59,728 nucleotides of DNA from a virus. Taxonomy: Duplodnaviria > Caudoviricetes. The notes under the pieces are model-generated. The model made no database searches, was not told the origin of the DNA, and saw only the letters and a list, made by a program, of their open reading frames with translations. The DNA is taken from positions 1 to 59,728 of IMG/VR virus record IMGVR_UViG_3300009104_000024. One strand, 5' to 3'. Position 1 is the stretch's first letter, and every line of letters begins with the position of its first letter. The translations under genes and the position numbers were made by a program. Below, one piece after another: positions 32,831-56,570 of the stretch.

Positions 32831-35800
32831 ATGCAAAAAGTTAATCTGCCTGACGGAAGAACATTAAAAATTCCTAACGATTTATCTGCTGAAAAGCGAG
32901 ATGAGTTAGCTAATGCAGTTAAAGCAGAATATAACATTGACATTAATGAAGGTTCTTTAGGTGAATGGTTAATAGATAAACCTAAATCAGTAGTTAGAGG
33001 ATTATCGCAAATGATACCTACAGGAGTAAAAGGTATTGCTGGTTTAACATTAGGAAGCGATAGCGATATAGTTAAAGGCATATCTGATTATCAAAGATAT
33101 ATTGCTACAGAATCGCCATTAGCATCTGACCCTAAATATAGAGATACATTTGGAACAAAACTTTCTGAAGGTGCTGGTTCATTAATTGGTTTTGGTGGAC
33201 TTTCGTATGCAGGTAGAAGATTAGCAGCTAAGGGTGTATTGAGTGATAAAGCAGGTCGTTTTGGTGTTCCTGGTTCATTAGCTGTACCTATGGGCATGGG
33301 TGAACAAGTAGATAGATTGGAGCAATCTAGAGCGTTGGGAGAAGAATCACCAGGTTTTTTAGCTGAAAAAACAGCCATTCTTGCTGGTGGTGTTATAGGT
33401 TTAAGTGAATTAGCACCTTTAGAAAGATTGTTTAGAGGCATTCCCAAAAATGCTTTAAAGAATCCTACAGTACAACAGTTACTTAATACACGATTAAGGT
33501 CAGCGATAGCAACAGGAACTGCTGAAGCTATTCAAGAAGCTGGAGCTGGTGTATTACAAAACTTAACAGCAGCAGGATTATATAGTGATGAAATACCTAT
33601 ATTTGATAGTGCATTAGAAGAGTTTACTATTGGTGGCATTTTAGGAGCAAGTGCTGATTTACTTGTTAATAGTCTTGCCAACAGAAGAAGTATTAGCAGT
33701 CAGCAATTAAGGGATGCAGAAACGAAAGCTAGAGACAATAGAACTAGTCTTCAATCACAAGATAAATTTGCTAGAGCACAAGAGCAAGGAATGGTTGAAG
33801 AGTATCAAGAACCTATTATAAAAGAAAAACCTGAAATAGATGTTCCAGCTATTGTTGATGTAGCTCCACCTGATTTAGGAGTAATAGAAAATCCTGATGG
33901 TCAATTTTCAGTTGTTGATTATAACGACTTAGAAAATCCTATACTAAGCTCACACGCTACCGAAGTTGATGCTCTATTAGAAAAAAATAATCAACAAACA
34001 AATTACGAAAGGAAAGTTTTACAAGTACAAGTTGATAATGACACATACATGATGGGAATGCCTGATAGCGATTCAGCTAAAACATTAGGTAGAACTGTTC
34101 TTGACCCTAACATTACGCAAATAAATTTATCTACTTTAATAGGATATGATTCTTCTATTTCAGAAGATTTAAAAAAAGAATTAAATAAAGAAAAATCTGC
34201 CACATATCCAGCACAGCCATATAGGCAGATGCTTGAAAATAAAAGAAAGAATTTAGAAAAAACTGCTAAATATTTAGAAAGTAAAGGTTTAGATTTAAAA
34301 AGTAGTTTTTCAATGCCTGAAGCTAAAAAAGTTTTAAAGCCTAAAGACTATAATCTAATGTTAGAAAGTTTTGCTAATCATGCTTTTACTGCTTCTGAAA
34401 AAGCAGGTGAACCTTCTATAAGAGAAGATAAATTAGATGTAACAATAAAGAATATTAAAGCTATTGCTGAATCTAAAAATATAGAATTAGACTTTAAAGA
34501 CCCAGCAGTTCGTTATGCAGCAAAACAATGGACAGGTTTTGAAGATATACCTAAAACAAGAAACAGAGGTGCTAAAGAACTTTTCTTAGCCAGAATACAT
34601 TCTCTTCCTGCATTTAATAGTAAAACTAAATTTCCTGATTTTAGACCTAGAGCTTACACAGGTGTAGACATGGCTAACTTTGTGGCTTCTGCACAAGACA
34701 TACAATTTACTGATGCTGACTTATTGGTAGCTGGTCCTGAAAGTATTAGAAATAAACCAGAAAATGTTAAACAATTTTTAAATGATTTAATTGAAAGTGG
34801 TAGAGCTAAAAAAATAAAAAACACAAATAAATATGAATTAACTGATGACTTTGAATACACAGTCGCCAGAAGACAAGAAGGGTTTAATGAAACACCAGAT
34901 GAATTTCGTGCAAGATTAGAAAGAGATAGGTCATTAGGTAAAAATAAATTATCTGATGAAGCTATAGATAGTCTTGTTGCGTCTGAAGAAGTAAGGCAAG
35001 AAAAGGTATTGCCACCAAAAGAAATTGAGAAAAAACTTATAGACTTTAATGAAACAATTGAAGAAGGTCGTACAAATAAATTTGCTAAAGAGTTAAGGAA
35101 AAAACTAAATAAAGTAGGATTAAGAGACACAGGTATAGTTGTTAGTAATGATATTTTATCTACTACTACATTAGCCGAAACTGAAACTGGACAAATAATA
35201 TTTGACCCTAGAAAAACTAGAGAAACTGCTACAGAAGGTGCAGTAGAAGGAGAATACGATAGAGATACAGACATTATTTTCTTATCGCTTAACTCTGTAA
35301 ATCCTGATGGCACAGCTACTGATGAACAAATACTACAAAGGTTAGATAAGATTCTTGACCATGAAATGATTCATGCGTTTAGAAAGAAAGATTTAATTAC
35401 TGAAAAGGAATATCAATATTTAAGAAACGAAGTTAAACGTAAAAAAGTTCCTACTGAATATGATGCTTCCAGCAAGAATGAAACTTTTTACACTAGAAGT
35501 CAAAGAATTAATAGTGGCATGGTACGACAAGCCACATCAGAAGGTAGGGCAAAAGAAGAAATAGAAGAATTTTTAGTAGAAGAAGCTATAGCTGAAATGT
35601 ATAGAGCCAGGGAGTTCAAACCTGTTACACCAAAATCTAAAGGCATATTAAATAGAATAGTTGAGTTCTTTAAATCTATGGGTCAAGCCATGCGTGTATC
35701 AGGCTACAGAGATTCTTCTGAAATATTTGCTGATATAGAAAGAGGTAAAGTAGGAGCTAGAGAAAGAGGACAAATACGAACCTTGCAAGAGCTAGATAAA

Positions 35801-38800
35801 ATATCTATGGCTAGAGAACAAGGTATTGTTGGTGGGTTAGGCATAACGCCTTCTGCTGTGCCTGAAGAACCTCGTGGTGAGGATAAATTAGATACTTCTG
35901 ACCCTCAATCAATAGCAGATGAATGGGGTGAAGGTGTTTTAATTACTCCAACTGTATCTTTTAATGATGTTAAATCAGATACAGACCCTATAACAGGTGT
36001 TACGTTGCCTTTGGAAGCTAGACAAAGAGGGGGTTTATACAATAAATGGGAATTAACACCAGAAGAATATGAAGCTGATAGAAAACAAATTTTAGATGAA
36101 TTTTATAGACCAACTGGTATTGGTGATGGAATTGAAAATATTAAAAGTATAGAAGTATTAAAGTGGCTTAGTAAAAATGGACCAACAGAAGATTATAGAG
36201 TTATTGCCAATAGACTATTAGTTCAACAAAGAAAATTAAAAAGAATAGTTGGCATTGAGGGATACTTTGCAATATTTAATGATGAACACGGAGGAAAACA
36301 AAGATTTATTGGTAAAGGTACGGATTACCAAAGTTTTCTTGGTGTTTCATATGCACCTTTTTTAAATGATGGTAGTTATAATGTTAAAGATTATAATCCT
36401 TATGGCGATAGCAAATTAGTACAACAAGTATATTTAAAAGATACCTCTTACACATCTTCACCAGGTCATAATGGTGTAAGTTTTGATACTATGTTGCACG
36501 AATTAGTGCATCAAACTACACAAGCTGCTACTAATTTTTATAGAGGTAGTAGAGCAACTGAACAATCTAAAAAACTTGTAAAAGATTTAGAAGAAGTTAG
36601 AAAAGAATTAATAAAAGAAATTGAAAAAAGAACTGACACTAAAGGTTCTATTGTTGAGGGTCAATATGTCAATGAAGATGCTGAAAATAAATTAAAGAGT
36701 GAATTTGGACAAGACGGAGCAGCAAAAATAGTATATGCAGCAAGTAAAATACAAGAAACTTTAGCAGTTGGATTTACTAATAGATATGCTCAAGACTTTA
36801 TGGATAGTATTCCATATAAAGGAACTAAAAAAACTTTATGGGATAAGTTTACTGAATCAATAAGAAAGCTATTAAGTTTACCTGCTAAAACTAATAGTTT
36901 ATTTTCTGAATTTTTAAGGATAAGTGGAAAATTAACAAATTTATCTAACGCACAATTAGAAGAACTAAATAGAGTTGGTGCTGATTATGATTATGGTCCA
37001 CCTGTTGCTAGCCTTGAAATGTCCGACCCTTCTATAGAATCAGAACTTTCTGATTTAAGAAGAGAACTATATGATGCAGAAAGTTTAGAGTCTGCCGATA
37101 GAGGTTATGTAGATGTAGAGGTAGGCAATCGTAATATGAGAAGAGTACAAAATATAAGAAATAAAATTGAAAGACTTGAAGAACAATTAAAACGAGAAGC
37201 AGAATTAAAACAACCAGTCACACCAGAACAGTTGCCTTTATTTAGTAGAACTCAAAAAGATGAGAAAAAAATAAGAACTATAGCTAGAGAAAATAGAAAA
37301 AGATTAAAGGAAGAATACAAAAATGATCCTGATGCTGTAGATGAAATTATTAAAGAATTTGAAGGCGAAGAATTATTTAGTGATGGTAGTGGTTTTATAG
37401 AAGGAATTACTACAAATAGAGGATATATGGATGACATTCCCTTGTCTTTTTCTTCTGAAAGATTATCTAAAAAAGTATTAGAAGATTATGGTTATGAAGA
37501 AATATTTGAAGGAGAAATGTCATCAGAGTTAAGAGATAAAGATAATCAACAAAATTATTATGTAGATTTAGGACAGAATAAATTTAGAGTTTACTTTAAT
37601 CGTTATGGTAATAAAAGAAACCAAGCGACTATTACTAATCCTACTTTAGATGAGTTAATGAATGAATCATGGTTTGAAAAAGAACGTAGGTCTTCTGACA
37701 TTCCTTTATTTAGTAGAGGACCTAGAGATGAATCGTCAGGTCATTTAGCTGATTATGTGCCTGCAGAATATGGTCCACCTGCACATCAACTAGATATAGT
37801 ATATGGCGATGAAAAAACAAAAGATGGTTATTATCCAGTTAGTTATGGTTTTACATATCCTAAAACTTCTCCAGATTATAGAACAAGAGAATTTACAGTT
37901 TATAGCACAGCTAGAACACCACTAGAACAACAAGAAGAGCGTGAGTTTATAAATAAACTTATGGAAATAAGAGGCAATCCAAATGCAGAAATAACTATGT
38001 ATCAAGCTGCACCACAAAGAGATTTAAGAGAAGGAGATTTAATAACTCCATTTTTAAGTGAAGCTGAAGCTCTTGTAGAAGATTCTAAAGTTACACAACA
38101 AGAAATTAGAGAAGCAGATAGAGCTAGAAGAAGGCAAGAACAGATAGATAAAAAAGGTGCTGTAGATTTACAACAAGAAAGATTGTTTAATCAAATGGAA
38201 GGAATATCAGATATTCTTGGTAGACCTGAAGTTACTCCATCAACAATACATACTTTTAAATTAAAAGCAGGAGATGTTCGTTGGGATGGTAATAATGGTT
38301 GGGCAAGATGGGGTTACTTCCCAAGAATAAAAGCTGTAGAAGATTTACCTTTATTTAGTAGAGCTGCCACAGATACTAAGCCTCCATATATGGACTTTAA
38401 TCGTAAACAGATTAGGAATTTTAGTAGTAATAAAGTTGGTTTTTATGATGGAGTAGAAATACCTTTAACTCATGTTGCACGAATGCGAGTTGAAGATTTT
38501 TTAAAACTTACTACAGCCAATCAAGAGGTAATTGATAATATAATAACAGGAGGTCCAACAGTTGCTTTATCTTCAGAGCCTATGGGCTTACTTCCAGCTT
38601 CTATAAGAAATCCTGATGCTATATTTGACTCAGAAATAGCAGATACTGCAATAATTCCTTCATTACCAAATTTAGAAATTAGAGGAAATGGTCAAGTAAT
38701 TAGCCATGAAGGCAGACATAGAGTTGCATTAATAGGACAAGGAGGTGGTAGAACTGTTCCTGTATTTATAAATTTTCCTGAAGGTAATGTAGAACAAAAT

Positions 38801-41800
38801 ATACCTAATCCTAGTGGTCAAACTTTACAAGAACAAGGTGTTACTTTTTTAAGAAATCAGGAATTTAATAACTTTACTGTTCCTATAAATAGGTTAGGAG
38901 AAATTGCACCTTTACATAGAGATAGTGCCCAAACTAAAGATAAATTAGATTATGCAGTAGAGATTGCTAGTCAGCCTGACTTACTTGCACCCTCTGGAAA
39001 TATACCTTTATTTTCTAGGCAATCTAAAACACCTTCAATAAAAGAACTTCCTGGAGAAGTTTCTGAGTATCGTGATAATTACAATATAACAGATACAGAA
39101 TTACTAAATGCTATAGAAGCTACAGAAATGAGCAGAAAATCAGGAACAAGAGAAAATCCTGGTCAGTTAGATACTACTATAGTAGAAATATTTGAAAACA
39201 ATCCCAACCTTTTAGAAGCTAGTAAAAACTTTCTTAGAAAGTTTACTAATAAAAAAGGTAACTTAATTGTATACAGAGCTTTAAATATACCTGCCTCTAT
39301 GCGTATAAAAAACTATGGGCAGTTTCCTCAAGATATTTACGCAAGTGCAACTATAGACCATAGAGAAGCTAAACAAATAGCAAGTAGTGTAGAAATAAGG
39401 TCAAGAGCTAAAGAAGAAGCACAATCAGAAATACTTAGATTTGAAGTGCCAATGGATAGAGTAAAAGCTTATGTTCCATCTTTAATAGTGGCTGGTAGAG
39501 AGCGATTAATAGAGATGAAAGAACAAGAATTTATTGATGCAGGGATAGAAAGTGAAATGGATGAAGACTTTAATCCTGATGAATATAATGACTACACTAG
39601 AGAACAATACATAGAAGAATATGAAAATGATTTAGATGCTTCTATAGATGAAGCTGAAGTTTTAGTTGACTTACGAGGAATCAAACCAACTTATCAGTAC
39701 ACACCTGGTAGTGGTATAACAGGTAGAGAACCATCTATAACTAGAGATATACCTTTATTCTCAAGAGCCAGAAGATTTACAGGTGAAGCTAATACACAAG
39801 AAAAAGTAGCATTACAAAAGTCTACAGAAATAATTGAAGATTTTGTAAAGAAAACTCCTAGAGGTGAAATACCTTTATACAATACAAATGCCTCTGATGT
39901 TGCTTTAAAAGCTGCGTATGACTATATAAATGACCCTAGTGCTCCTACTATAAATGAACTTCCTAATTACTCTAGAGTTGAAAAAGAAATACCTGAAGAT
40001 TTACAAGGTGTAGTTAATAGAGGTGGGTATGTTGCTCCAAGGAAGCCTTGGTATGAAAGATTAATTAGTGATGTTTCTGACCCTGTAACTAATATTAGAA
40101 AGTTTTTTAAAGATACAAGACAAAACTATATTGATAAGTTAGATAAAGTAGAAAAGAAAATAGCACAAGGAAGTGAAGAGTTTGAAGAAGTAAGACTTTT
40201 AAATAATATAGCCGACACCTCTGCTATAGCTGCATTAAGAATGGCTGATAAAGCTAGAGGTATATTTCAAGGTATGCTTACAAGAGGATTTGCTACAGAT
40301 GTTATTGACGGAGAAGCTGCATTAACAACTACTGAAGAACTAGAAATAGATACAGTATATAACCCATACATTGATGGCGATACAGGTACTGGTGGTTTAT
40401 TACAAATTACTGCTCCTTTATTTTCTGACCCATTAGTAGATTTAGAAGGAATATTTGGAACATATGCCAAATTAAAAAGAGTTCAAGGATTTCAAAAACA
40501 AAATAGACAAGTTGAATCCCCTTTTACACAACAAGATTTAGAATTTATAAATAATATTGAAGCTAACTATCAAGTTGTTGTTGAGGTATATAACAACTAT
40601 CAAAAATGGAACAATAAATTAGTAGACTTTGCACAAGCTAAAGGCTTATTAAATGAAGCACAAGCTACAAAATGGAGAGAAGAATCAACTTACTATCCTT
40701 TTTATAGAGATATGGTTGAAGAAGAGGGTATAACTGCACCAAGAATAGGTGGTGGTTCTTTACCTAATAACCCATTAAATTTAAAACTTAAAGGTTCTGA
40801 AGCAGAAATAAATGTTTCTCCATTAGAAGCTATAGCAAGAAACTCTTTGTCTATTCTTACTGCTTCCATGAAAAATGACGGAGCAACAAAGTTAATAGAA
40901 AGTTTAGCAATTATGGGTGAAGCAGAATACATCACCCCACAACAATTAAAAAATAAACAAGGTGCAAAAACTATATTTGTTTTTGAAAATGGATTTAAAA
41001 AACACTACAACATAGAAGACCCTGATTTATTCCATAGTATCAGAGCATTAGGTGGAGCAGAAGTTGGATTTATAACTAAACTTTTAGCTATGCCAGCTAC
41101 GTTATTAAGAGATACAGTAACTCGTGACCCTGGATTTATAGCAGTAAACTTACTTAGAGATACGCTATCTGCAACTGTAACATCAGGTGTTAATTTATCA
41201 TCACCTTTTACAGGTGGTGATGGATTTGTGCCAATGATAGATACCATTAAAAATATGTTTGGCGACATGACAGACTTAGAAAAGTTTGGTGTTATTGGTG
41301 GATATGATTTCGCTAATGACGAAGGTGATGTTGTTGACTATATGGCACGAATAAGAAGACAACAAGGTCTTACGGCTAACAATGGTATGTCAGCAGAAAA
41401 AGCTTTCTTTTATGTTTGGGATGGTCTTGGTGGACTAACAACAAAATCTGATGGAGCTACTCGTAAAGGTGTGTTTGATGCAGTTTATAAACGCATGAAA
41501 AACACTATTGATGAAAGAACAGGTGAAGTTTACACAGATGCAGCAGCACAATCAGAAGCAGCTTTTCAATCCTTAGAGGTTATAAACTTTGGTCGTAGAG
41601 GACTATCACCAATGTTTAGAGTTATTACGTCTGCAATACCTTTTTTAAACGCTAGAATACAAGGTCTTGACGTTATATACAGGTCATTTAGAGGAACGTA
41701 TTCAGCACAAGATAAACTACAAGAAGGTGAAACTTTAGATGAATTAAAGAACAGAATAATGCGAAGAACTGCATTGAGAGGTGGAACTATTATGGCTTCT

Positions 41801-42781
41801 ACCTTAATTTACTATCTATTAGTTAGTGATACAGAAGAATACAAGGAAGCCAAGAGAGAACTAAGAGATGACAATTGGTTGATACCAACTCCATTTGATT
41901 ACACATTAAAAGTTCCTATTCCTTTTGAGATTGGAATGATGTTTAAGGCACTACCTGAGAGGTTCATAGACCTCGTTCTAGGAGAGAAAGTGTTAGGACT
42001 AAAGGAATCAGTAGAGAAAGACCCTATCGAGTCTATAAGGAGGCAATTAGGAACTTCTGCAAACATACCTTTCTTATCAGGTGACATCAGCATACAAGCA
42101 TTAAAGCCTATTTTTGAAGCTACAATTAATAGAAATTCTTTTACAGGTCAAGAAATTGTTCCTTACTATAAGCTGAAGAGAGAGCCAGGTTATCAAGCAT
42201 CTCCACAAACTAATGAACTAGCTAGAGTTATCGGTGAAGCCTTAAATATTTCACCAACTAAAATTGAGCACGTTATCAATGGATATACAGGAACACTCGG
42301 AGGTTATGTGTTGGATATTGTGGATTCACTAACTAGAACTGCAACAGGTTCTCCATACATACCAAATAATATTTTTAGTAACCCAACTAACTTTGCCCAA
42401 TACCCATTAATTAAAAGACTGGTCGTGGATAATAAAAAAATGGGAGGGTTGCAACAACAGTTCTATGAACTTAGAGGTGAGGTAGATAGAGCCGTTACGA
42501 CTATGAATAGTCTTAAACAAGAAAAAAGGTTTGATGAACTCAGAGCTTATAAGTCTGATGTAAAAGGCTTAATGAATGTCAAAGGCAGAGTAAGAGCAAT
42601 GGAAAGATACTTGGACAATTGGAGGAAGAGAAGAGATAGATTGATGCGTAGGACTGATATATCGGTTATGGTTAAAGCAGAAATGATTCAAGACTTAGAA
42701 GCAGAAAGAGATAAGCGTTTAGCGTTTATACCTGAACTAAGGAAGAAAGCTAACGTGCCTATCCTCCAGGGAGGACTGTAA
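32831..42781 (+). CDS. Large polyvalent protein (ejected): two zincin motifs, ART-like and ParB-like modules, LPD38-like C-terminus
   Basis: HEMIH (35360) and HELVH (36497); HEGRHR; VYRAL..SAT..EAEV; repeated PLFSR linkers; domain names inferred by eye. Confidence 0.75.
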   Translation: MQKVNLPDGRTLKIPNDLSAEKRDELANAVKAEYNIDINEGSLGEWLIDKPKSVVRGLSQMIPTGVKGIAGLTLGSDSDIVKGISDYQRYIATESPLASDPKYRDTFGTKLSEGAGSLIGFGGLSYAGRRLAAKGVLSDKAGRFGVPGSLAVPMGMGEQVDRLEQSRALGEESPGFLAEKTAILAGGVIGLSELAPLERLFRGIPKNALKNPTVQQLLNTRLRSAIATGTAEAIQEAGAGVLQNLTAAGLYSDEIPIFDSALEEFTIGGILGASADLLVNSLANRRSISSQQLRDAETKARDNRTSLQSQDKFARAQEQGMVEEYQEPIIKEKPEIDVPAIVDVAPPDLGVIENPDGQFSVVDYNDLENPILSSHATEVDALLEKNNQQTNYERKVLQVQVDNDTYMMGMPDSDSAKTLGRTVLDPNITQINLSTLIGYDSSISEDLKKELNKEKSATYPAQPYRQMLENKRKNLEKTAKYLESKGLDLKSSFSMPEAKKVLKPKDYNLMLESFANHAFTASEKAGEPSIREDKLDVTIKNIKAIAESKNIELDFKDPAVRYAAKQWTGFEDIPKTRNRGAKELFLARIHSLPAFNSKTKFPDFRPRAYTGVDMANFVASAQDIQFTDADLLVAGPESIRNKPENVKQFLNDLIESGRAKKIKNTNKYELTDDFEYTVARRQEGFNETPDEFRARLERDRSLGKNKLSDEAIDSLVASEEVRQEKVLPPKEIEKKLIDFNETIEEGRTNKFAKELRKKLNKVGLRDTGIVVSNDILSTTTLAETETGQIIFDPRKTRETATEGAVEGEYDRDTDIIFLSLNSVNPDGTATDEQILQRLDKILDHEMIHAFRKKDLITEKEYQYLRNEVKRKKVPTEYDASSKNETFYTRSQRINSGMVRQATSEGRAKEEIEEFLVEEAIAEMYRAREFKPVTPKSKGILNRIVEFFKSMGQAMRVSGYRDSSEIFADIERGKVGARERGQIRTLQELDKISMAREQGIVGGLGITPSAVPEEPRGEDKLDTSDPQSIADEWGEGVLITPTVSFNDVKSDTDPITGVTLPLEARQRGGLYNKWELTPEEYEADRKQILDEFYRPTGIGDGIENIKSIEVLKWLSKNGPTEDYRVIANRLLVQQRKLKRIVGIEGYFAIFNDEHGGKQRFIGKGTDYQSFLGVSYAPFLNDGSYNVKDYNPYGDSKLVQQVYLKDTSYTSSPGHNGVSFDTMLHELVHQTTQAATNFYRGSRATEQSKKLVKDLEEVRKELIKEIEKRTDTKGSIVEGQYVNEDAENKLKSEFGQDGAAKIVYAASKIQETLAVGFTNRYAQDFMDSIPYKGTKKTLWDKFTESIRKLLSLPAKTNSLFSEFLRISGKLTNLSNAQLEELNRVGADYDYGPPVASLEMSDPSIESELSDLRRELYDAESLESADRGYVDVEVGNRNMRRVQNIRNKIERLEEQLKREAELKQPVTPEQLPLFSRTQKDEKKIRTIARENRKRLKEEYKNDPDAVDEIIKEFEGEELFSDGSGFIEGITTNRGYMDDIPLSFSSERLSKKVLEDYGYEEIFEGEMSSELRDKDNQQNYYVDLGQNKFRVYFNRYGNKRNQATITNPTLDELMNESWFEKERRSSDIPLFSRGPRDESSGHLADYVPAEYGPPAHQLDIVYGDEKTKDGYYPVSYGFTYPKTSPDYRTREFTVYSTARTPLEQQEEREFINKLMEIRGNPNAEITMYQAAPQRDLREGDLITPFLSEAEALVEDSKVTQQEIREADRARRRQEQIDKKGAVDLQQERLFNQMEGISDILGRPEVTPSTIHTFKLKAGDVRWDGNNGWARWGYFPRIKAVEDLPLFSRAATDTKPPYMDFNRKQIRNFSSNKVGFYDGVEIPLTHVARMRVEDFLKLTTANQEVIDNIITGGPTVALSSEPMGLLPASIRNPDAIFDSEIADTAIIPSLPNLEIRGNGQVISHEGRHRVALIGQGGGRTVPVFINFPEGNVEQNIPNPSGQTLQEQGVTFLRNQEFNNFTVPINRLGEIAPLHRDSAQTKDKLDYAVEIASQPDLLAPSGNIPLFSRQSKTPSIKELPGEVSEYRDNYNITDTELLNAIEATEMSRKSGTRENPGQLDTTIVEIFENNPNLLEASKNFLRKFTNKKGNLIVYRALNIPASMRIKNYGQFPQDIYASATIDHREAKQIASSVEIRSRAKEEAQSEILRFEVPMDRVKAYVPSLIVAGRERLIEMKEQEFIDAGIESEMDEDFNPDEYNDYTREQYIEEYENDLDASIDEAEVLVDLRGIKPTYQYTPGSGITGREPSITRDIPLFSRARRFTGEANTQEKVALQKSTEIIEDFVKKTPRGEIPLYNTNASDVALKAAYDYINDPSAPTINELPNYSRVEKEIPEDLQGVVNRGGYVAPRKPWYERLISDVSDPVTNIRKFFKDTRQNYIDKLDKVEKKIAQGSEEFEEVRLLNNIADTSAIAALRMADKARGIFQGMLTRGFATDVIDGEAALTTTEELEIDTVYNPYIDGDTGTGGLLQITAPLFSDPLVDLEGIFGTYAKLKRVQGFQKQNRQVESPFTQQDLEFINNIEANYQVVVEVYNNYQKWNNKLVDFAQAKGLLNEAQATKWREESTYYPFYRDMVEEEGITAPRIGGGSLPNNPLNLKLKGSEAEINVSPLEAIARNSLSILTASMKNDGATKLIESLAIMGEAEYITPQQLKNKQGAKTIFVFENGFKKHYNIEDPDLFHSIRALGGAEVGFITKLLAMPATLLRDTVTRDPGFIAVNLLRDTLSATVTSGVNLSSPFTGGDGFVPMIDTIKNMFGDMTDLEKFGVIGGYDFANDEGDVVDYMARIRRQQGLTANNGMSAEKAFFYVWDGLGGLTTKSDGATRKGVFDAVYKRMKNTIDERTGEVYTDAAAQSEAAFQSLEVINFGRRGLSPMFRVITSAIPFLNARIQGLDVIYRSFRGTYSAQDKLQEGETLDELKNRIMRRTALRGGTIMASTLIYYLLVSDTEEYKEAKRELRDDNWLIPTPFDYTLKVPIPFEIGMMFKALPERFIDLVLGEKVLGLKESVEKDPIESIRRQLGTSANIPFLSGDISIQALKPIFEATINRNSFTGQEIVPYYKLKREPGYQASPQTNELARVIGEALNISPTKIEHVINGYTGTLGGYVLDIVDSLTRTATGSPYIPNNIFSNPTNFAQYPLIKRLVVDNKKMGGLQQQFYELRGEVDRAVTTMNSLKQEKRFDELRAYKSDVKGLMNVKGRVRAMERYLDNWRKRRDRLMRRTDISVMVKAEMIQDLEAERDKRLAFIPELRKKANVPILQGGL

Positions 42782-48892: not shown

Positions 48893-50683
48893 ATGGAGAA
48901 AAGTATGCTAAGTCAAGAGCAACAGGAAAAAAATGATATAAGGAATCATATCAATCACAATCCTAAAACTAACAATCAAGCACACGGACAATACAAAATA
49001 ACTTGTCCTAATTGTCAGAGAGAAAGAACAAAGAACAAAGGTGACACACCTTTATCAGTTAATATAAATTCAGAGACTATTGTTTATCATTGTCATCATT
49101 GTGGCATTCAAGGAGCAATGTCTAAATCCCAGGGAGCAACAATGAAAGTAGTTAAAACAGAATCAAAACCAGTAAAAGAAATATCAGTTCCTCCAATAGA
49201 TAAGAAAGGAAAGGCTTCTCAATGGCTGAAAGATAGAGGAATTAGTGTAGAAGTAGCTGAAATGTCAGGTTGCACTCTAACAGAGAAAAATAAAAAACCA
49301 GTCATAGGATTTACATTTGAAAAAGATAGCAAAGCGATAGCAGTTAAGTGGAGAACTTGTAACGGAGAAAAAAGTTATTGGTGGGATAATTCCGCTTCTC
49401 GTCTATGGGGTCGTCAAGTTTACAATGACAGTTTACCTACAGTTGAATCAACAATAGTGATTACAGAAGGCGAATTAGATATGCTTGCAATCAAGGAAGC
49501 GTTTAAAGACCATGCCAACATAGATGTATATAGCGTTCCCAATGGAGCACCAAACAAGATAACAGAGAACAAGATAGACCCTTCTGAAGAAGGAAGATTT
49601 AAGTATATATGGGAAGATAGACACCTTTTTGAAGGAGTAGATAGGGTAGTTTTAGCTACAGATGACGATAAGAACGGAGAGATATTGGCTTCAGAGTTGT
49701 CCAGGAGACTCAATAAAGCTAGATGTTATATTGTTGATTATAAAGGGCATAAGGATGCGAATGAGTTATTAGTTGAGTCAGATGCAGAAACAGTCAGACA
49801 TCAGGTTTTAAATGCAGAGCCTGTTCCTCTTCACGGATTAAACAACATAGACTTTTATGCAGATGAATTTCAAAGTTTGTATGACCAAGGACACCCCAAA
49901 GGCATATCAACAGGGTTTGATTCAGTTGATAAGCTATTTTCTTTGCAAACAGGCTACTTAACTGTAGTTACAGGCTATCCTGGTGACGGAAAGAGTATAT
50001 TTTTAGACAATATTATTATAAATGCCTGTAAAAATTATGGTTGGAAGGCTACCTATTGCAGTTTTGAAAAACCTCCTACGCTTCATGCCGTTCAATTGGC
50101 TCAAATCATAACTTCTAAGCCATTTTTTTCTGGACTGAACCAAAGAATGACACAGGAAGAGAAAGACTATGCACAGAAATTTATAAACGACCATATACTT
50201 TTTCAAGACTATCAAGACGGAGGTATGCCTACGATAGAATCTATCTTAGAAAAGAATGCACAGAGTATTATGAGGACAGGTAGTAGAATACTTGTCATAG
50301 ACCCCTTTAACTTTGTTCAAACAAACGATAAGTATGCTTTAGAAACAGATATGGTTAGTGATATGCTTACGAAAGTTCAGCTTCATTGTAAGCAATATGA
50401 TTGTCTTTGTTTCTTTGTCGCACACCCCACGAAACCACAGATGCGTGACGGAAAAAAGAATATTGTCACAGGAGTTGATGTTGCAAAGTCTATGGCATTC
50501 TTCTCTAAATGTGACACAGGGTTGACAGTTTACAGAGGAGAAGGCACAGTAGATATACATTGTTGGAAAGCAAGGTGGCAATGGCAATCTTCTTTAGGAG
50601 TTGCTAGCTTAACTTTTAACCCTGTTAATAACAGATATGCAGAAGCACAACAAATCAAAGACGACTACGATTGGGAGTTCTGA
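48893..50683 (+). CDS. Primase-helicase (T7 gp4/Twinkle-like)
   Basis: CPNC..CHHC zinc finger, TOPRIM ITEGELD and DDDKNG, Walker A GYPGDGKS, LVIDP, VAHP. Confidence 0.92.
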   Translation: MEKSMLSQEQQEKNDIRNHINHNPKTNNQAHGQYKITCPNCQRERTKNKGDTPLSVNINSETIVYHCHHCGIQGAMSKSQGATMKVVKTESKPVKEISVPPIDKKGKASQWLKDRGISVEVAEMSGCTLTEKNKKPVIGFTFEKDSKAIAVKWRTCNGEKSYWWDNSASRLWGRQVYNDSLPTVESTIVITEGELDMLAIKEAFKDHANIDVYSVPNGAPNKITENKIDPSEEGRFKYIWEDRHLFEGVDRVVLATDDDKNGEILASELSRRLNKARCYIVDYKGHKDANELLVESDAETVRHQVLNAEPVPLHGLNNIDFYADEFQSLYDQGHPKGISTGFDSVDKLFSLQTGYLTVVTGYPGDGKSIFLDNIIINACKNYGWKATYCSFEKPPTLHAVQLAQIITSKPFFSGLNQRMTQEEKDYAQKFINDHILFQDYQDGGMPTIESILEKNAQSIMRTGSRILVIDPFNFVQTNDKYALETDMVSDMLTKVQLHCKQYDCLCFFVAHPTKPQMRDGKKNIVTGVDVAKSMAFFSKCDTGLTVYRGEGTVDIHCWKARWQWQSSLGVASLTFNPVNNRYAEAQQIKDDYDWEF

Positions 50684-51766: not shown

Positions 51767-51890
51767 TACATTATAGGCAAAATGCTATCAAATTGAAAGC
51801 CACATGAAAAATTCTCAGTAGCTCACATCCATACGGAAAAAAAATATTTATGCGACTGGTATTTTGAGCTACGCCAGTAAACTGCTTCTA

Positions 51891-51906
51891 CGTTTCATGT
51901 GAAACA
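51891..51906. promoter_or_regulatory. parS-like palindrome
   Basis: CGTTTCATGTGAAACA, 14/16 to TGTTTCACGTGAAACA. Confidence 0.7.
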
Positions 51907-51949
51907 TAGACTATCTTAAACGACTATCTTATACGATAAAAAAATGGAT

Positions 51950-51988
51950 AAAAAAAAGGGATGAGTTCTAGGAAAACCCACCCCTTTT
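51950..51988 (-). terminator. Intrinsic terminator
   Basis: AAAAGGGGUGGGUU/AACUCAUCCCUUUU stem with G-U pairs only on minus strand, then U tract. Confidence 0.75.
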
Positions 51989-52042
51989 AACATCTACTAA
52001 CTAGACATGGAGGTTATCTTGTTCTAAGTCTTAACAAGATAT
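51950..52042 (-). ncRNA. Candidate ~90-nt sRNA with anti-Shine-Dalgarno seed
   Basis: Promoter TTGCAT-17-TACAGT (52075-52047), 5' hairpin, AACCUCCAUG, terminator 51988-51950; no ORF. Confidence 0.6.
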
Positions 52043-52078
52043 AAATACTGTAATACTTTCGATTGCATAATGCAAGTG

Positions 52079-52110
52079 TTATCCACAAGTTATTCACACA
52101 GTTATCCACA
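52079..52110 (+). promoter_or_regulatory. Three head-to-tail DnaA boxes
   Basis: TTATCCACA 52079, TTATTCACA 52090, TTATCCACA 52102. Confidence 0.85.
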
Positions 52111-52160
52111 GGTTTTCCAGACTCATCCATAAAAATAAATATTCCTAGTTTTTTGCACGC

Positions 52161-52208
52161 CCACTATATCTTGTGTTGATTAGTTGAGAACACCACTAGA
52201 TATAGACG
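52161..52208. promoter_or_regulatory. Tandem NrdR boxes
   Basis: CCACTATATCTTGTGT (52161) and CCACTAGATATAGACG (52193) fit acaCwAtATaTwGtgt; 32-bp spacing. Confidence 0.75.
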
Positions 52209-52338
52209 GAGGACTTCCTGCGACTGGGAAAATATTTCCCTGGGAGCTACAACAGCTCATCAAAACGTAGCAGTAGGTTAGGTTTCAGATTTCCTACAGG
52301 TAATTTTATCTACCTGTAGTATTTGCTTTTTTCAGACC

Positions 52339-52381
52339 AAAAAAAAAGGCAACAACCACTTATTAAAGTAGTTATTGCCTT
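52339..52381 (-). terminator. Intrinsic terminator closing the leftward early operon
   Basis: 16-bp stem fully paired on minus strand plus U tract. Confidence 0.85.
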
Positions 52382-52426
52382 ATTTATTTTAAAGTTAATT
52401 GTTATGAACCCATTGATGAATTTTAT

Positions 52427-53161: not shown

Positions 53162-54412
53162 CTATGCTACGAGACTATTCTTATCCACATAAATAACTTC
53201 ACCAAAAGGTAAATTATTAGAATAAGAACTTTCCTCCGTAACGCACCATATAACAGGAACTTCAGGCTGAACGTCAGCATCAACCAATCCGAATCCGTCT
53301 GTAAAATAAACGAATGCTTTTACATCCTGGACTTCATCCGAATAATCATTGAAGAGATTAAAAGGAGGATTAAATTCTGTTCCTCCTCCTCCTCTAGCTT
53401 CAAGTTTTACCTCTTCGCCCTGGTCAAGTTCATACACATCCCACCATTCACCATTAGAATTTTTTCTTACGACTGTATCGCAATAACAAACTCTAATTTT
53501 TTCTAAACCACACGATTCAGCCATTGAAATAATTTCAGTAGTGAATATGTTTAGTTCGTCTTGGTCAATTGAACAAGATGTATCTATGGCTATAGCTAAC
53601 TCACCTCCCTGGGAAGATTTAACTTTACTAGGTAAATATAAATTTCTCCAGGTATGACGTTTATTAGGTCTCGCCCACGTTCTATCGTCAGCCATAGAAC
53701 TTGAAAGAAAATCGCTTAACAGTTCATGCCAGTTAAAATTGATTTCCTGTAATTCTTGCATTCTGCGACCTATCGCAGAGCCTGAATCACTTCCTATAGA
53801 TTTCTCCAGTTTGTCAGCTTTAGATACTGCATTCCTGATTTCAGTTTGAAGATCAGACAATTCTGAATCACCTAAAGGTTTTCCTTCTTCGTCTTGAGCC
53901 TGTATGACTTCACCTACTGGCACAGGAAGTTCATCCCATTCAGTAGAGGAAACGTCTATCCCCTCACCTTCATGTCCTGTAATATCATCTACAGTATCTT
54001 GTAAAGAATCATCATCTTCTGCCAAAATTTGATACACCTTTTCAGCAGTCATACCTCTATATTTATTATCAAGTAAACCACCTTCAGGTAATTTCATTCC
54101 TAAATCCCACCTAAGATAAGCATTAATTATATAGTCAGTTGCGTAATTCCATAGAACGTGATGCCTACTACTTCCTTTTCGCAAGGGATGTTCCCATATG
54201 ACGTGGCTAGCTTCGTGAACTAAGACTGCTTGTAATTCCTTAACAGAAATACTTTTGACAAAATCTTTATTCCAAAAAATTCTTTGTCCGTCAGTAGCTA
54301 ACGTATCAAAAGAAGCATCTTCAACCAGTTCTAAGTTGAGCAACATTGAAGCCATACCAATATTACCCTTCATTAGTTTTGCTCTAGCTTTTATAAGTTT
54401 TTGTTCAGTCAT
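53162..54412 (-). CDS. VWA domain protein with N-terminal metallopeptidase (DUF2201-like)
   Basis: ATDG, HEASH, WNYATD; MIDAS-like DTSCS, GGGGT, YFTDG; GGAGG RBS before ATG 54412. Confidence 0.88.
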   Translation of the reverse strand: MTEQKLIKARAKLMKGNIGMASMLLNLELVEDASFDTLATDGQRIFWNKDFVKSISVKELQAVLVHEASHVIWEHPLRKGSSRHHVLWNYATDYIINAYLRWDLGMKLPEGGLLDNKYRGMTAEKVYQILAEDDDSLQDTVDDITGHEGEGIDVSSTEWDELPVPVGEVIQAQDEEGKPLGDSELSDLQTEIRNAVSKADKLEKSIGSDSGSAIGRRMQELQEINFNWHELLSDFLSSSMADDRTWARPNKRHTWRNLYLPSKVKSSQGGELAIAIDTSCSIDQDELNIFTTEIISMAESCGLEKIRVCYCDTVVRKNSNGEWWDVYELDQGEEVKLEARGGGGTEFNPPFNLFNDYSDEVQDVKAFVYFTDGFGLVDADVQPEVPVIWCVTEESSYSNNLPFGEVIYVDKNSLVA

Positions 54413-55358
54413 CTTTACCTCCAAAAGCCTTATTAAAGAAACTTCCTTTAAGGTCTCCTACAGAACTTTCTAAATCATCTGCAACCTTCTTTCGTTTAGC
54501 TTCTCCCAATTCAGTTTCATCTCTAAGAGAATCATAAGAATTGATTGAGGCAAAAACAGAAACAAGACTTTGATGAGCATTAGATATGTCTGCATCATTC
54601 CCTAAAATGTCAGAGTTAATTGAGGGAAGCATATCAATAGACTGTTTTAATTTCTCAAAACTGGTCTTATGAAATGTTTCACCATTCTTTAACTTATCGA
54701 CAATATGATTTACTTGTTCAAGTAAAGCCTCAACAGTAACCTTAAAAACATTTCTTACATTGTTTGCAAGTCTGTTTTCAGTCTCTTGTTGAATGCTAGC
54801 TTTCATTTTGTCAGAGACATTTAAACGAATATCAGAAGATTTAGTTATGTCCTGAATTAGTTCTTTCTTAAAATCAAAAACAAATTTGCTTCTAAGTTTT
54901 TCAACGTCAGGATAATCTTCTTCATTAAATGCAGAGCCTAATTTTCTTTCAGCTACAGAAACAAAAGAATCATAATTTTCAAGAAAACTTTCTGCTTCCT
55001 CAAAAAAATCATCTTTAGCTTCTTGCATTTTCTCGTCTAGCAAATCTAATTGTGTACTTGGACACAATCTCCACCCACTAGTGCTAGTTGAATCAGAATC
55101 CGATTCACTATCGCTCCAGGGAACAGTTAAAGCATAATAGTATTCTCTACGAATCCTATTCGTTATACGTCTGAATATCTTATTAATATTCTCTCCGTAC
55201 ATATGCTTAGAAACGTGCAATGTTCTTTCATCTGCACCTACGTTACTTTCTAACCCTTCTCGTAAACTTTTATCTACCTTAATACCACTAGGATGTTTAA
55301 CAGTTAAACTAACCAGTAATGCTTGTTTAGATAAAAGGTTTTTATTATTTTTATTCAT
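54405..55358 (-). CDS. Helical hypothetical protein (DUF3150-like)
   Basis: GGAGG RBS; between ATPase and VWA genes; family call inferred. Confidence 0.6.
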   Translation of the reverse strand: MNKNNKNLLSKQALLVSLTVKHPSGIKVDKSLREGLESNVGADERTLHVSKHMYGENINKIFRRITNRIRREYYYALTVPWSDSESDSDSTSTSGWRLCPSTQLDLLDEKMQEAKDDFFEEAESFLENYDSFVSVAERKLGSAFNEEDYPDVEKLRSKFVFDFKKELIQDITKSSDIRLNVSDKMKASIQQETENRLANNVRNVFKVTVEALLEQVNHIVDKLKNGETFHKTSFEKLKQSIDMLPSINSDILGNDADISNAHQSLVSVFASINSYDSLRDETELGEAKRKKVADDLESSVGDLKGSFFNKAFGGKDD

Positions 55359-55385
55359 AAACCCTCCAGTCTATATTATTAATAA

Positions 55386-55448
55386 TCTGTTTCGCATGAC
55401 CCATAAATGAACAGGTCGCTCTTCAGTATGGTTAATTCCATATACAGA
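55386..55448 (-). ncRNA. Type III hammerhead ribozyme (canonical core)
   Basis: UCUGUA^UAUGG-AAUUAA-CCAUA-CUGAAGA-GCGACC...GGUC(AU)GC-GAAA-CAGA. Confidence 0.9.
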
Positions 55449-55475
55449 AAAAAACGGAGGGCATTTCTGCCCTCC
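55448..55475 (-). terminator. Intrinsic terminator abutting hammerhead
   Basis: GGAGGGCA-GAAA-UGCCCUCC-G-U7. Confidence 0.8.
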
Positions 55476-55481
55476 ATAATT

Positions 55482-56570
55482 TTATACCTCTAAGTCTTGA
55501 TGCTTAACTTTGAACTCATTGAAAGTTGTTGTTTCAACAAGTTCAGTTCTTGCATTGATTAGAGAACGAACAAAAAATACTTCGTATTCAGGAGTTGGAA
55601 ATTGCTCTATATATTTCAGAGCATTTTCAAAATAACTTTCAACCAAAGAATCGCTAACTTCTTTAATTACAGTTATCAGCGCAACGACTGTAGCAAAATA
55701 TATTCCGTTCTGTTTTTTCTTATCCTTAGCCTTTTCAGGAGAATCAATTTTCCCCTCACAAATTTTTTGCAAGTCAGGAACATCTTCTTTGAGTTGCAAG
55801 AAAGATGCAAATTCAATTGATGCAGTTTCGCCTACATTAATGTCTGCGAATTTCTGTATAAATGAATTTTCAGGATTAGTCTTTAAAGTGCTAGACAATC
55901 TTGTCCAGGAACGAGGGCAAGGCTGAGGAGCAATGACTTTAGGATCAAAAACATTCAACCAGTTAGGCTGATAATTTAAGAATCCTAAAATGTCAGGATG
56001 AACATCATTCTTGACTGCCCAATTGAACCAGTCGTTAGAATCGTGAACGAACTCAATCATTGCACACCTGGAATAGCAATGAGAAGGAATCTTATTAGAC
56101 CCCGCCCTATCGCTAGCCTTATTGGAAGCACAAACAATTACCCAATTACCTTTTCCATTTTCAGGAGTTGGTAATTCATAATCTCCTATTCTTTTCTCAT
56201 ACATAAGTTGAGATAGAACAGTTTGCATTGAATGGTGAGACTGCCCAAATTCATCCAGGAAAAGCATACCTTCTCCACTAACAGGAAGATTACCTAAAAA
56301 GGCTCTCTTCTGTTTGCCTTCCTCAATATAAGGAATGCCTGATAGGTCATAAGACTCATACAAACTACTTCTAAAATCTATCCAACCATATTCTTTTGCA
56401 GTTGGATTGACTTTATCTGTAACCACTTTTCTTCCTTCAGCCAAGATGTCTCGCACCTCTTCGACTATTGCAGACTTTCCAATACCAGTTCCTCCTAAAA
56501 GGAATGGCGTATTGTTAGCCTTTATTTCGCATTGCATCATATACAACGCTTCACTAGGTTTATATTTCAT
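55482..56570 (-). CDS. MoxR-like AAA+ ATPase
   Basis: GGTGIGKS Walker A, LFLDE Walker B, ASN sensor, PRSW. Confidence 0.9.
   Translation of the reverse strand: MKYKPSEALYMMQCEIKANNTPFLLGGTGIGKSAIVEEVRDILAEGRKVVTDKVNPTAKEYGWIDFRSSLYESYDLSGIPYIEEGKQKRAFLGNLPVSGEGMLFLDEFGQSHHSMQTVLSQLMYEKRIGDYELPTPENGKGNWVIVCASNKASDRAGSNKIPSHCYSRCAMIEFVHDSNDWFNWAVKNDVHPDILGFLNYQPNWLNVFDPKVIAPQPCPRSWTRLSSTLKTNPENSFIQKFADINVGETASIEFASFLQLKEDVPDLQKICEGKIDSPEKAKDKKKQNGIYFATVVALITVIKEVSDSLVESYFENALKYIEQFPTPEYEVFFVRSLINARTELVETTTFNEFKVKHQDLEV

Follow-up and report, generated by a model that had tools for sequence, protein, structure and literature searches.

A pair of NrdR-type boxes, lying in the genome of an uncultured marine phage in which we found no ribonucleotide reductase (RNR) gene, may form part of the control region of a small phage RNA that would be gated by two host proteins, DnaA and NrdR. 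We hold this reading with about even confidence; protein binding, the promoter, the ends of the RNA, the direction of regulation and the target are all deduced from the DNA sequence. NrdR is regarded as a repressor dedicated to RNR genes, whose tetramer binds DNA in the presence of dATP and ATP and lets go with ATP alone. If the reading is true, phages listen to this host dNTP sensor to time their own programme. Full-text searches (which cover literature outside subscription journals) found no publication on NrdR sites at non-RNR phage loci.

The phage genome and its paired boxes

The window (the whole stretch of DNA that was analysed, 59,728 bp) is a full IMG/VR record with a completeness rating of 100% and a GC content of ~35%. 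Pfam and PHROG scans of its 61 open reading frames (ORFs) identify the genome as that of a tailed podophage, with a structural and lysis set (large and small terminase, capsid, SU10-type adaptors, lysozyme) and a replication and recombination block (primase-helicase at 48893-50683, Sak, an SSB-like and a RusA-like protein, an exonuclease and a Ref-like nuclease). No RNR, ATP-cone or DNA polymerase domain was recognised in these scans; as no polymerase turned up among the 61 ORFs, the phage probably depends on replication proteins of its host. Its large terminase shares 52-60% identity with that of Pelagibacter phages HTVC023P and HTVC027P, phage 023Pt_psg01 and phage DSL-LC04. PolA is a core gene of those phages (PMC9599517), so that only the structural module is common to both. 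The 111-aa ORF discussed below found no match among named phages with tblastn, and the box region found none among plasmids with BLAST.

Two further parts of the genome deserve mention. A 3316-aa ORF (32831-42781) has LPD38, near its C-terminus, as its sole domain and is probably an ejected internal virion protein. On the minus strand, an accessory module of three genes (53162-56570) encodes an AAA+ ATPase (MoxR/dynein-like), a DUF3150-like protein and a DUF2201 metallopeptidase/VWA protein, the last of which carries the PHROGs label HNH endonuclease.

The first-pass annotation of this DNA had pointed to tandem NrdR boxes without an RNR gene to regulate, and both halves of that statement hold. 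Two 16-mers fitting NrdR boxes are present at 52161 and 52193, with starts 32 bp apart and consequently a spacer of 16 bp; there is one pair per genome and no array. An RNR, ATP-cone or NrdR gene was found neither among the 61 ORFs nor in a six-frame search of the window, and the RNR large subunit was found in 0 of 5 related virus records, with or without boxes (4 of the 5 are at least 95% complete). With no RNR gene at the site, this NrdR-type operator would stand outside the classical regulon and would not belong to the nrd promoter class. NrdR is widespread among bacteria, its gene being found in 9 of 14 control genomes and in 24 of 41 genomes of one bacterial order.

Compared with the 16-mer that we take to be the NrdR consensus (ACACWATATATWGTGT), box 1 has two mismatches and box 2 has five, the left half and centre of box 2 being good and its outer right half weak. 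A matrix was also obtained by palindrome-constrained EM, with no starting consensus, on 18 upstream regions of bacterial nrdR-RNR operons. These were drawn from 30 RNR loci of one bacterial order, which was reached via a genome-collection match. The EM output was ACACTAT..ATAGTGT, and in most operons the two best sites are exactly 32 bp apart; a strict core pattern found 0 pairs in the 30 bacterial RNR loci, since the box centres differ there. Scored with the de novo matrix, the phage pair sums to 20.85 bits, the best value of the window (next pair 4.27) and one that 0 of 1000 first-order Markov windows reached (mean 1.87, sd 3.77, max 18.26). The matrix scan that had been proposed as a check thus puts the pair above background, but single boxes match at chance level (with the above consensus, 2 window matches with at most 3 mismatches against 2.14 expected). 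As a scan of very many windows could yield one chance pair, conservation weighs more than the score. The usual spacer of NrdR operators is 15-16 bp (PMC12051234, PMC2892513) and may also be about one helical turn longer (PMC12051234).

Homology to the 111-aa ORF yielded 26 related viral loci, and the 13 closest, chosen regardless of boxes, were compared. All 13 carry an NrdR pair in the same place. Each box has a mean pairwise identity of 0.78; in the spacer this drops to 0.47 and in the flanks to 0.42-0.52. Positions 6 and 8-14 of box 1 and positions 2-6, 8, 9 and 11-13 of box 2 are invariant in all 13 (position 4 of box 1 in 12), and these invariant columns are the strong columns of the de novo matrix; the outer half-sites vary. 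Another 80 loci were brought in through a shared terminator word. Here the pair occurs in 10 of 73 distinct upstream regions, and some pairs are clearly different in letters, with both boxes still near-palindromic and spacers of 15-16 bp. In all, we count 8 or more distinct versions of the box pair, which differ in spacer letters but have the palindromic core and a spacer of 15-16 bp in common. Given both the conservation of the boxes and these diverged palindromic variants, it can be argued that selection acts on the binding of one symmetric protein with NrdR specificity. The two boxes therefore look like a genuine NrdR-type operator, to which NrdR would be expected to bind.

The predicted leftward promoter and small RNA

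Two minus-strand ORFs enclose the 660-bp gap (51767-52426) that holds the boxes, and no protein gene is within reach of the pair. The earlier remark that no credible gene follows in either direction is correct for protein genes, but it misses a conserved small-RNA gene predicted to the left. The features of this non-coding island are listed in Table 1.

Table 1. Features observed or predicted in the non-coding island around the NrdR-type boxes (window coordinates)
Feature	Position	Strand	Details
Predicted small RNA, ~90 nt	51952..52041	-	5' hairpin, AACCUCCAU, second hairpin, terminator
Small-RNA terminator hairpin	51988-51954, then U run	-	from fold; also found by a separate terminator scan
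Small-RNA second hairpin	~52008-51990	-	from fold
Unpaired AACCUCCAU	CCUCC = complement of 52009-52013	-	from fold
Small-RNA 5' hairpin	52041-52015	-	from fold
Predicted -10	52047..52052	-	TACAGT; 17 bp from -35
Predicted -35	52070..52075	-	TTGCAT; in conserved TTGCA-N-TGCAA repeat 52062-52077
DnaA array, three head-to-tail boxes	52079..52110	+	TTATCCACA at 52079 and 52102 (perfect DnaA boxes); TTATTCACA at 52090 (one mismatch)
NrdR box 1	52161..52176		CCACTATATCTTGTGT; 13.8 bits, rank 2 of all window positions
Spacer between boxes	52177..52192		16 bp; length kept, sequence not
NrdR box 2	52193..52208		CCACTAGATATAGACG; 7.0 bits, rank 14
Right-hand non-coding stretch	52209..52332	+	fold z -2.6
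Palindrome GGGAAAATATTTCCC	52226-52240		in right-hand stretch; centred on AAATATTT
Conserved word CAAAACGTAGCAGTAGGTT	52261-52279		form CAAAAC(A/G)(C/T)AGCAGTAGGTT
Plus-strand terminator	stem 52294-52319 + T run	+	terminator scan
Two-way terminator	52346..52381		closes island, ends upstream minus-strand operon

The search pattern gave 29 matches, one of which (L080) was left out as unrelated, leaving 28 distinct loci. The predicted -35 agrees with TTGACA at 3 of 6 positions, which makes the promoter weak by consensus, and a stricter sigma-70 scan did not list it. A TAnnnT exactly 17 bp from the -35 was not a selection criterion and occurs in 26 of the 28 loci. Conservation of the TTGC in the -35, by contrast, is partly built in, as these letters belonged to the search pattern. 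HTVC027P, HTVC023P, DSL-LC04 and 023Pt_psg01 lack the promoter pattern. Two other promoter readings were rejected: a sigma-54 reading of TGG...TTGCA, in which the spacing is one base too short, and a sigma-70 promoter inside the box pair (TTCTCA-16-TATAGT, minus strand), which is not conserved in aligned relatives. The repeat that overlaps the -35, of the TTGCATAATGCAA type, is better conserved than any other part of the gap (identity 0.86 among the ORF-selected relatives) and may be bound by a phage regulator, perhaps the nearby 107-aa Arc-like protein.

The three DnaA boxes stand 3, 14 and 26 nt upstream of the -35. The same register (3/14/26, sometimes 38 nt), in one orientation and with at most one mismatch, is found in 25 of the 28 distinct homologous loci, and among the 13 ORF-selected relatives the array has a mean pairwise identity of 0.84. 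Several matches, helical phasing and conservation together mark a DnaA-box cluster, which DnaA would be expected to bind. Against phages, the only BLAST match consisted of 45 bp of this array in T7-like coliphages: window positions 52075-52119 are 88-89% identical over 44-45 bp to PV245933.1 and MK685668.1, and in Shigella phage A7 the match lies at 78-121, near the genome end. Similar DnaA-box arrays thus occur in T7-like coliphages.

The RNA of the window has a predicted folding energy of -30.3 kcal/mol (z -4.4), and stable folds are predicted for the whole set of 28 RNAs (mean z -5.0 against mononucleotide shuffles). The sequence ACCUCCA is invariant among the homologues, with CCUCC unpaired in 21 of the 28 minimum-energy folds. 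Hairpin 1 adjoins this motif in 21 of 28 loci (15 different arm sequences), while hairpin 2 and the terminator are present in all 28 (13 and 23 different sequences, respectively). Compensatory changes were seen in 7 of 9 terminator pairs (RNAalifold, 22 sequences); hairpin 1 was not alignable by MAFFT and its covariation was counted from separate folds. Rfam returned 0 matches at gathering thresholds, the best sub-threshold scores being 19-29 bits against thresholds of 55-115. With its own predicted promoter, a covarying structure, a terminator and no coding potential, the unit has the sequence properties of a new, putatively trans-acting small-RNA family, its ends being predicted. Genes for the 111-aa and 107-aa proteins follow ~190 nt downstream; we read the unit (52041-51952) as a new small RNA, a terminated leader for these two genes being the other possibility. 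Potential targets of the exposed motif in the phage genome numbered 6, with 4.26 expected, and a second search returned a single non-self match at 3 mismatches; neither result singles out a target.

To the right of the boxes no conserved RNA structure was found among 8 relatives (4 weak pairs, 0 compensatory changes). The left flank of the two-way terminator, AGACCAAAAAAAAAGGC, is common to 99 viral stretches. The AAATATTT-centred palindrome also occurs as half-copies near 52136-52148 and 51853-51870, and either side of the island (52209-52332 and 51800-51950) carries AAATATTT-centred and AAAACACAGCAGTAGG-like words. These AT-rich repeated words recur in relatives in variable number and orientation; they could be origin iterons or operators of a phage regulator.

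Proposed gating of the small RNA and competing explanations

In the model that we favour, the boxes would be a working operator for the host repressor NrdR and form the distal part of the control region of the leftward small-RNA promoter, the proximal part being the phased three-box DnaA array that abuts the -35. The exposed AACCUCCAU resembles the anti-Shine-Dalgarno end of 16S rRNA and would pair with phage or host ribosome-binding sites; alternatively, it might be a terminated leader for the genes of the 111-aa and 107-aa proteins. In this way a phage without RNR or a recognisable DNA polymerase would set the level of the RNA by two host signals, DnaA status and the dATP/ATP ratio, which also govern E. 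coli nrdAB.

In the window, 85 bp separate the pair from the -35 downstream of it, which places the boxes at about -120 to -170 relative to the predicted start. A pair lies within 260 nt of the -35 in 13 of the 28 loci, 10 times distally (71-107 nt) and 3 times proximally; the proximal cases are the loci that have no DnaA array (L067, L086, L025), where the pair is only 5-6 nt from the -35. At the other 15 loci the pair is missing, so the RNA does not need it. With an NrdR pair in place of the DnaA array at three loci and a distal pair at ten, the two kinds of box behave as interchangeable or additive input modules of one predicted promoter. It is on these modular inputs, together with the same logic at E. 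coli nrdAB, that our best explanation is based. Its weak points include the position of the pair, far from where NrdR normally blocks RNA polymerase and at a distance that varies among relatives, the modest promoter consensus, the weakness of box 2 on its own and a matrix drawn from one bacterial order. The first-pass annotation had offered a dNTP-sensing gate at a nearby origin or small-RNA promoter. Of its readings this one fits best, with the pair in the upstream region of the predicted small-RNA promoter and close to the -35 in the three relatives; the register of the DnaA boxes to the -35 speaks for promoter control over origin unwinding.

The comparison with E. coli nrdAB is close in several respects. 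Its promoter has two DnaA boxes 12 bp apart that touch a TTGCAA -35, followed by the NrdR boxes. That this promoter also carries DnaA boxes, as the first-pass annotation had stated, was confirmed by the two seen in its sequence, in an order that agrees with PMC2892513. Shared with the phage are two 16-bp palindromic boxes with a 16-bp spacer, the same order of DnaA and NrdR sites, and head-to-tail DnaA boxes 11-12 bp apart beside a -35 that begins with TTGCA. On the other hand, the phage has a small-RNA unit and no nrd gene nearby, in a virus without RNR; its pair stands well upstream of the -35, whereas the nrdAB pair overlaps the promoter; and its DnaA boxes point the other way relative to transcription. 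NrdR is also active at a non-RNR promoter: at P. aeruginosa topA an NrdR box activates (PMC4409342), which shows that sites other than those where it merely obstructs a promoter can be functional. The topA site resembles ours in being outside RNR genes, at a gene linked to DNA metabolism, but it is a single chromosomal box at a protein gene, unlike the canonical pair found here at a predicted phage RNA gene.

Instead of acting on the promoter, the pair might be a repressor decoy, the NrdR sponge of the first-pass annotation, through which multiplying phage genomes would soak up NrdR tetramers (and DnaA), derepress host RNR and raise dNTPs. Such a role would suit a site that has no protein gene in reach, whose distance to neighbouring elements is not fixed, and which belongs to a phage that, like five relatives, has no detected RNR large subunit; moreover, a site of this kind lies in non-coding DNA of an unrelated inovirus-like element. 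Several strong sites would however be expected of a decoy, where we find a single pair per genome with a suboptimal box 2. The lack of a pair at more than half of the related loci (15 of 28) also argues against it, and the placement 5-6 nt from the -35 in three relatives looks like control in cis. The host NrdR regulon is strongly induced in lytic pneumococcal phage infection (PMC6755750), but dNTP consumption explains that induction equally well. We consider a decoy unlikely.

A further possibility is an origin-linked gate, in which the island (~51954-52381) would be a replication origin and the DnaA boxes, the AAATATTT-centred words and either NrdR-induced bending or a rightward transcript (52209-52332) would control its firing or priming. 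The fixed register of the DnaA boxes to the -35 points to promoter control rather than to origin unwinding, even though the array itself is conserved and the island adjoins replication genes. GC skew follows gene orientation and gives no origin signal, and we identified no unwinding element or initiator. In its favour, a phage with no DNA polymerase recognised among its 61 ORFs would probably need host replication proteins, repeated words stand on both sides of the island, terminators insulate it, and the rightward stretch folds (z -2.6) and ends in a terminator. The DNA to the right of the boxes yielded neither a conserved structure nor a promoter. We hold an origin-linked role to be unlikely, to about the same degree as a decoy.

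It is very unlikely that the boxes are operators of a phage protein (such as the 107-aa Arc-like or the 111-aa protein) that merely resemble NrdR boxes. Small putative regulators do lie beside the island (a weak Arc-like PHROG match, E 1.3e-4), and the outer half-sites do vary among relatives. However, the columns that do not vary are those that score strongly in the matrix built from bacterial nrdR-RNR operons, the spacer length is that of NrdR, and the same motif pair is found in the unrelated inovirus-like element and in at least 118 viral stretches (26-70% GC in the 80 examined). A passive remnant of a captured host nrd promoter, as the first-pass annotation had also suggested, or a random match is hardly credible: the DnaA-then-NrdR order is that of E. 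coli nrdAB and single boxes match at chance level, but 0 of 1000 simulated windows reach the pair score, the boxes appear to be under selection (box-specific conservation across diverged relatives), no RNR gene was found in the 5 related records, and any resemblance to the E. coli nrdAB promoter or the bacterial-assembly match is confined to the boxes.

NrdR pairs away from RNR genes

The exact letters of the boxes (14+12), joined by any 18 bases, gave one match in the bacterial genome collection. This match (L136, on the 11,332-bp contig C16 of G001) lies in ~1.93 tandem copies of an inovirus-like element with a period of ~5.9 kb (about 5.88 kb), the copies being 82-99% identical and encoding a Zot-like ATPase and a 648-aa protein. 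The NrdR pair of the element is placed in non-coding DNA beside DnaA boxes, and its spacer is identical to that of the window at 5 of 16 positions; no similarity between the two regions was found outside the boxes. Given the different spacer and the lack of other similarity, the element is an unrelated virus with the same kind of orphan site. Its bin, an incomplete one from an uncultured bacterium, gave no NrdR or RNR match. The same intergenic region of L136 also holds ~110 nt of hairpins ending in a T run.

A degenerate NrdR-pair pattern was then the basis of a census of viral DNA, which yielded at least 118 stretches; in the 80 that were examined (L167-L246) the nearest outward-facing ORF on each side was annotated, 113 ORFs in all. 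Only 1 of the 80 pairs adjoins an RNR gene (anaerobic RNR), while 11 adjoin portal genes and 4 large terminase genes, directly before or inside the 5' ends of these genes; for 25 of the 80, the pair falls within an open frame 100 codons long or longer. The portal and terminase cases hint at a link between packaging genes and NrdR in some phages. Judged by pattern matches of this kind, the census suggests that viral NrdR pairs away from RNR genes are widespread and not a curiosity. The phage pair shares with these orphan operators its canonical form and its distance from RNR genes. The others are mostly at or inside portal, terminase or uncharacterised genes, or occur as arrays, whereas the window has one pair, joined to a DnaA array at a predicted small-RNA promoter.

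Two known systems are related to other aspects of the island. The c4 RNA of P1/P7 is a phage regulatory RNA that pairs with ribosome-binding sites. Like c4, the RNA predicted here is short and highly structured, with an exposed stretch complementary to the Shine-Dalgarno sequence; unlike it in descent, it has no sequence or Rfam relationship to c4, and we know of no description of control through host DnaA or NrdR sites for c4-type RNAs. DnaA-regulated promoters occur beside origins, as does mioC at E. coli oriC, and DnaA titration sites are exemplified by datA. These resemble the island in that DnaA boxes cluster beside a promoter whose short transcript is non-coding or reads through, close to replication functions, but the island, a candidate origin at most, adds an NrdR-type operator.

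Combining these lines, we tentatively propose, at somewhat less than even confidence, that a marine phage family uses an anti-Shine-Dalgarno small RNA as a riboregulatory checkpoint with DnaA and NrdR inputs, by which translation of a gene set would be matched to dNTP supply, and that this is one instance of a broad, so far undescribed phage use of NrdR operators at non-RNR genes. The predicted RNA would belong to a new compact family with a testable feature, the exposed CCUCC, and the 48-bp operator lends itself to direct testing with purified NrdR and reporters.

A last observation concerns the bacterial order from which the matrix was derived. RNR genes without an adjacent nrdR (L141, L143, L145, L150-L152, L154 and L156) are preceded there by a different, conserved leader, GCCACTTGACA ... 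CTGCCCGG ... GGTCTGCCCCC, which we take to be possibly a cobalamin riboswitch.
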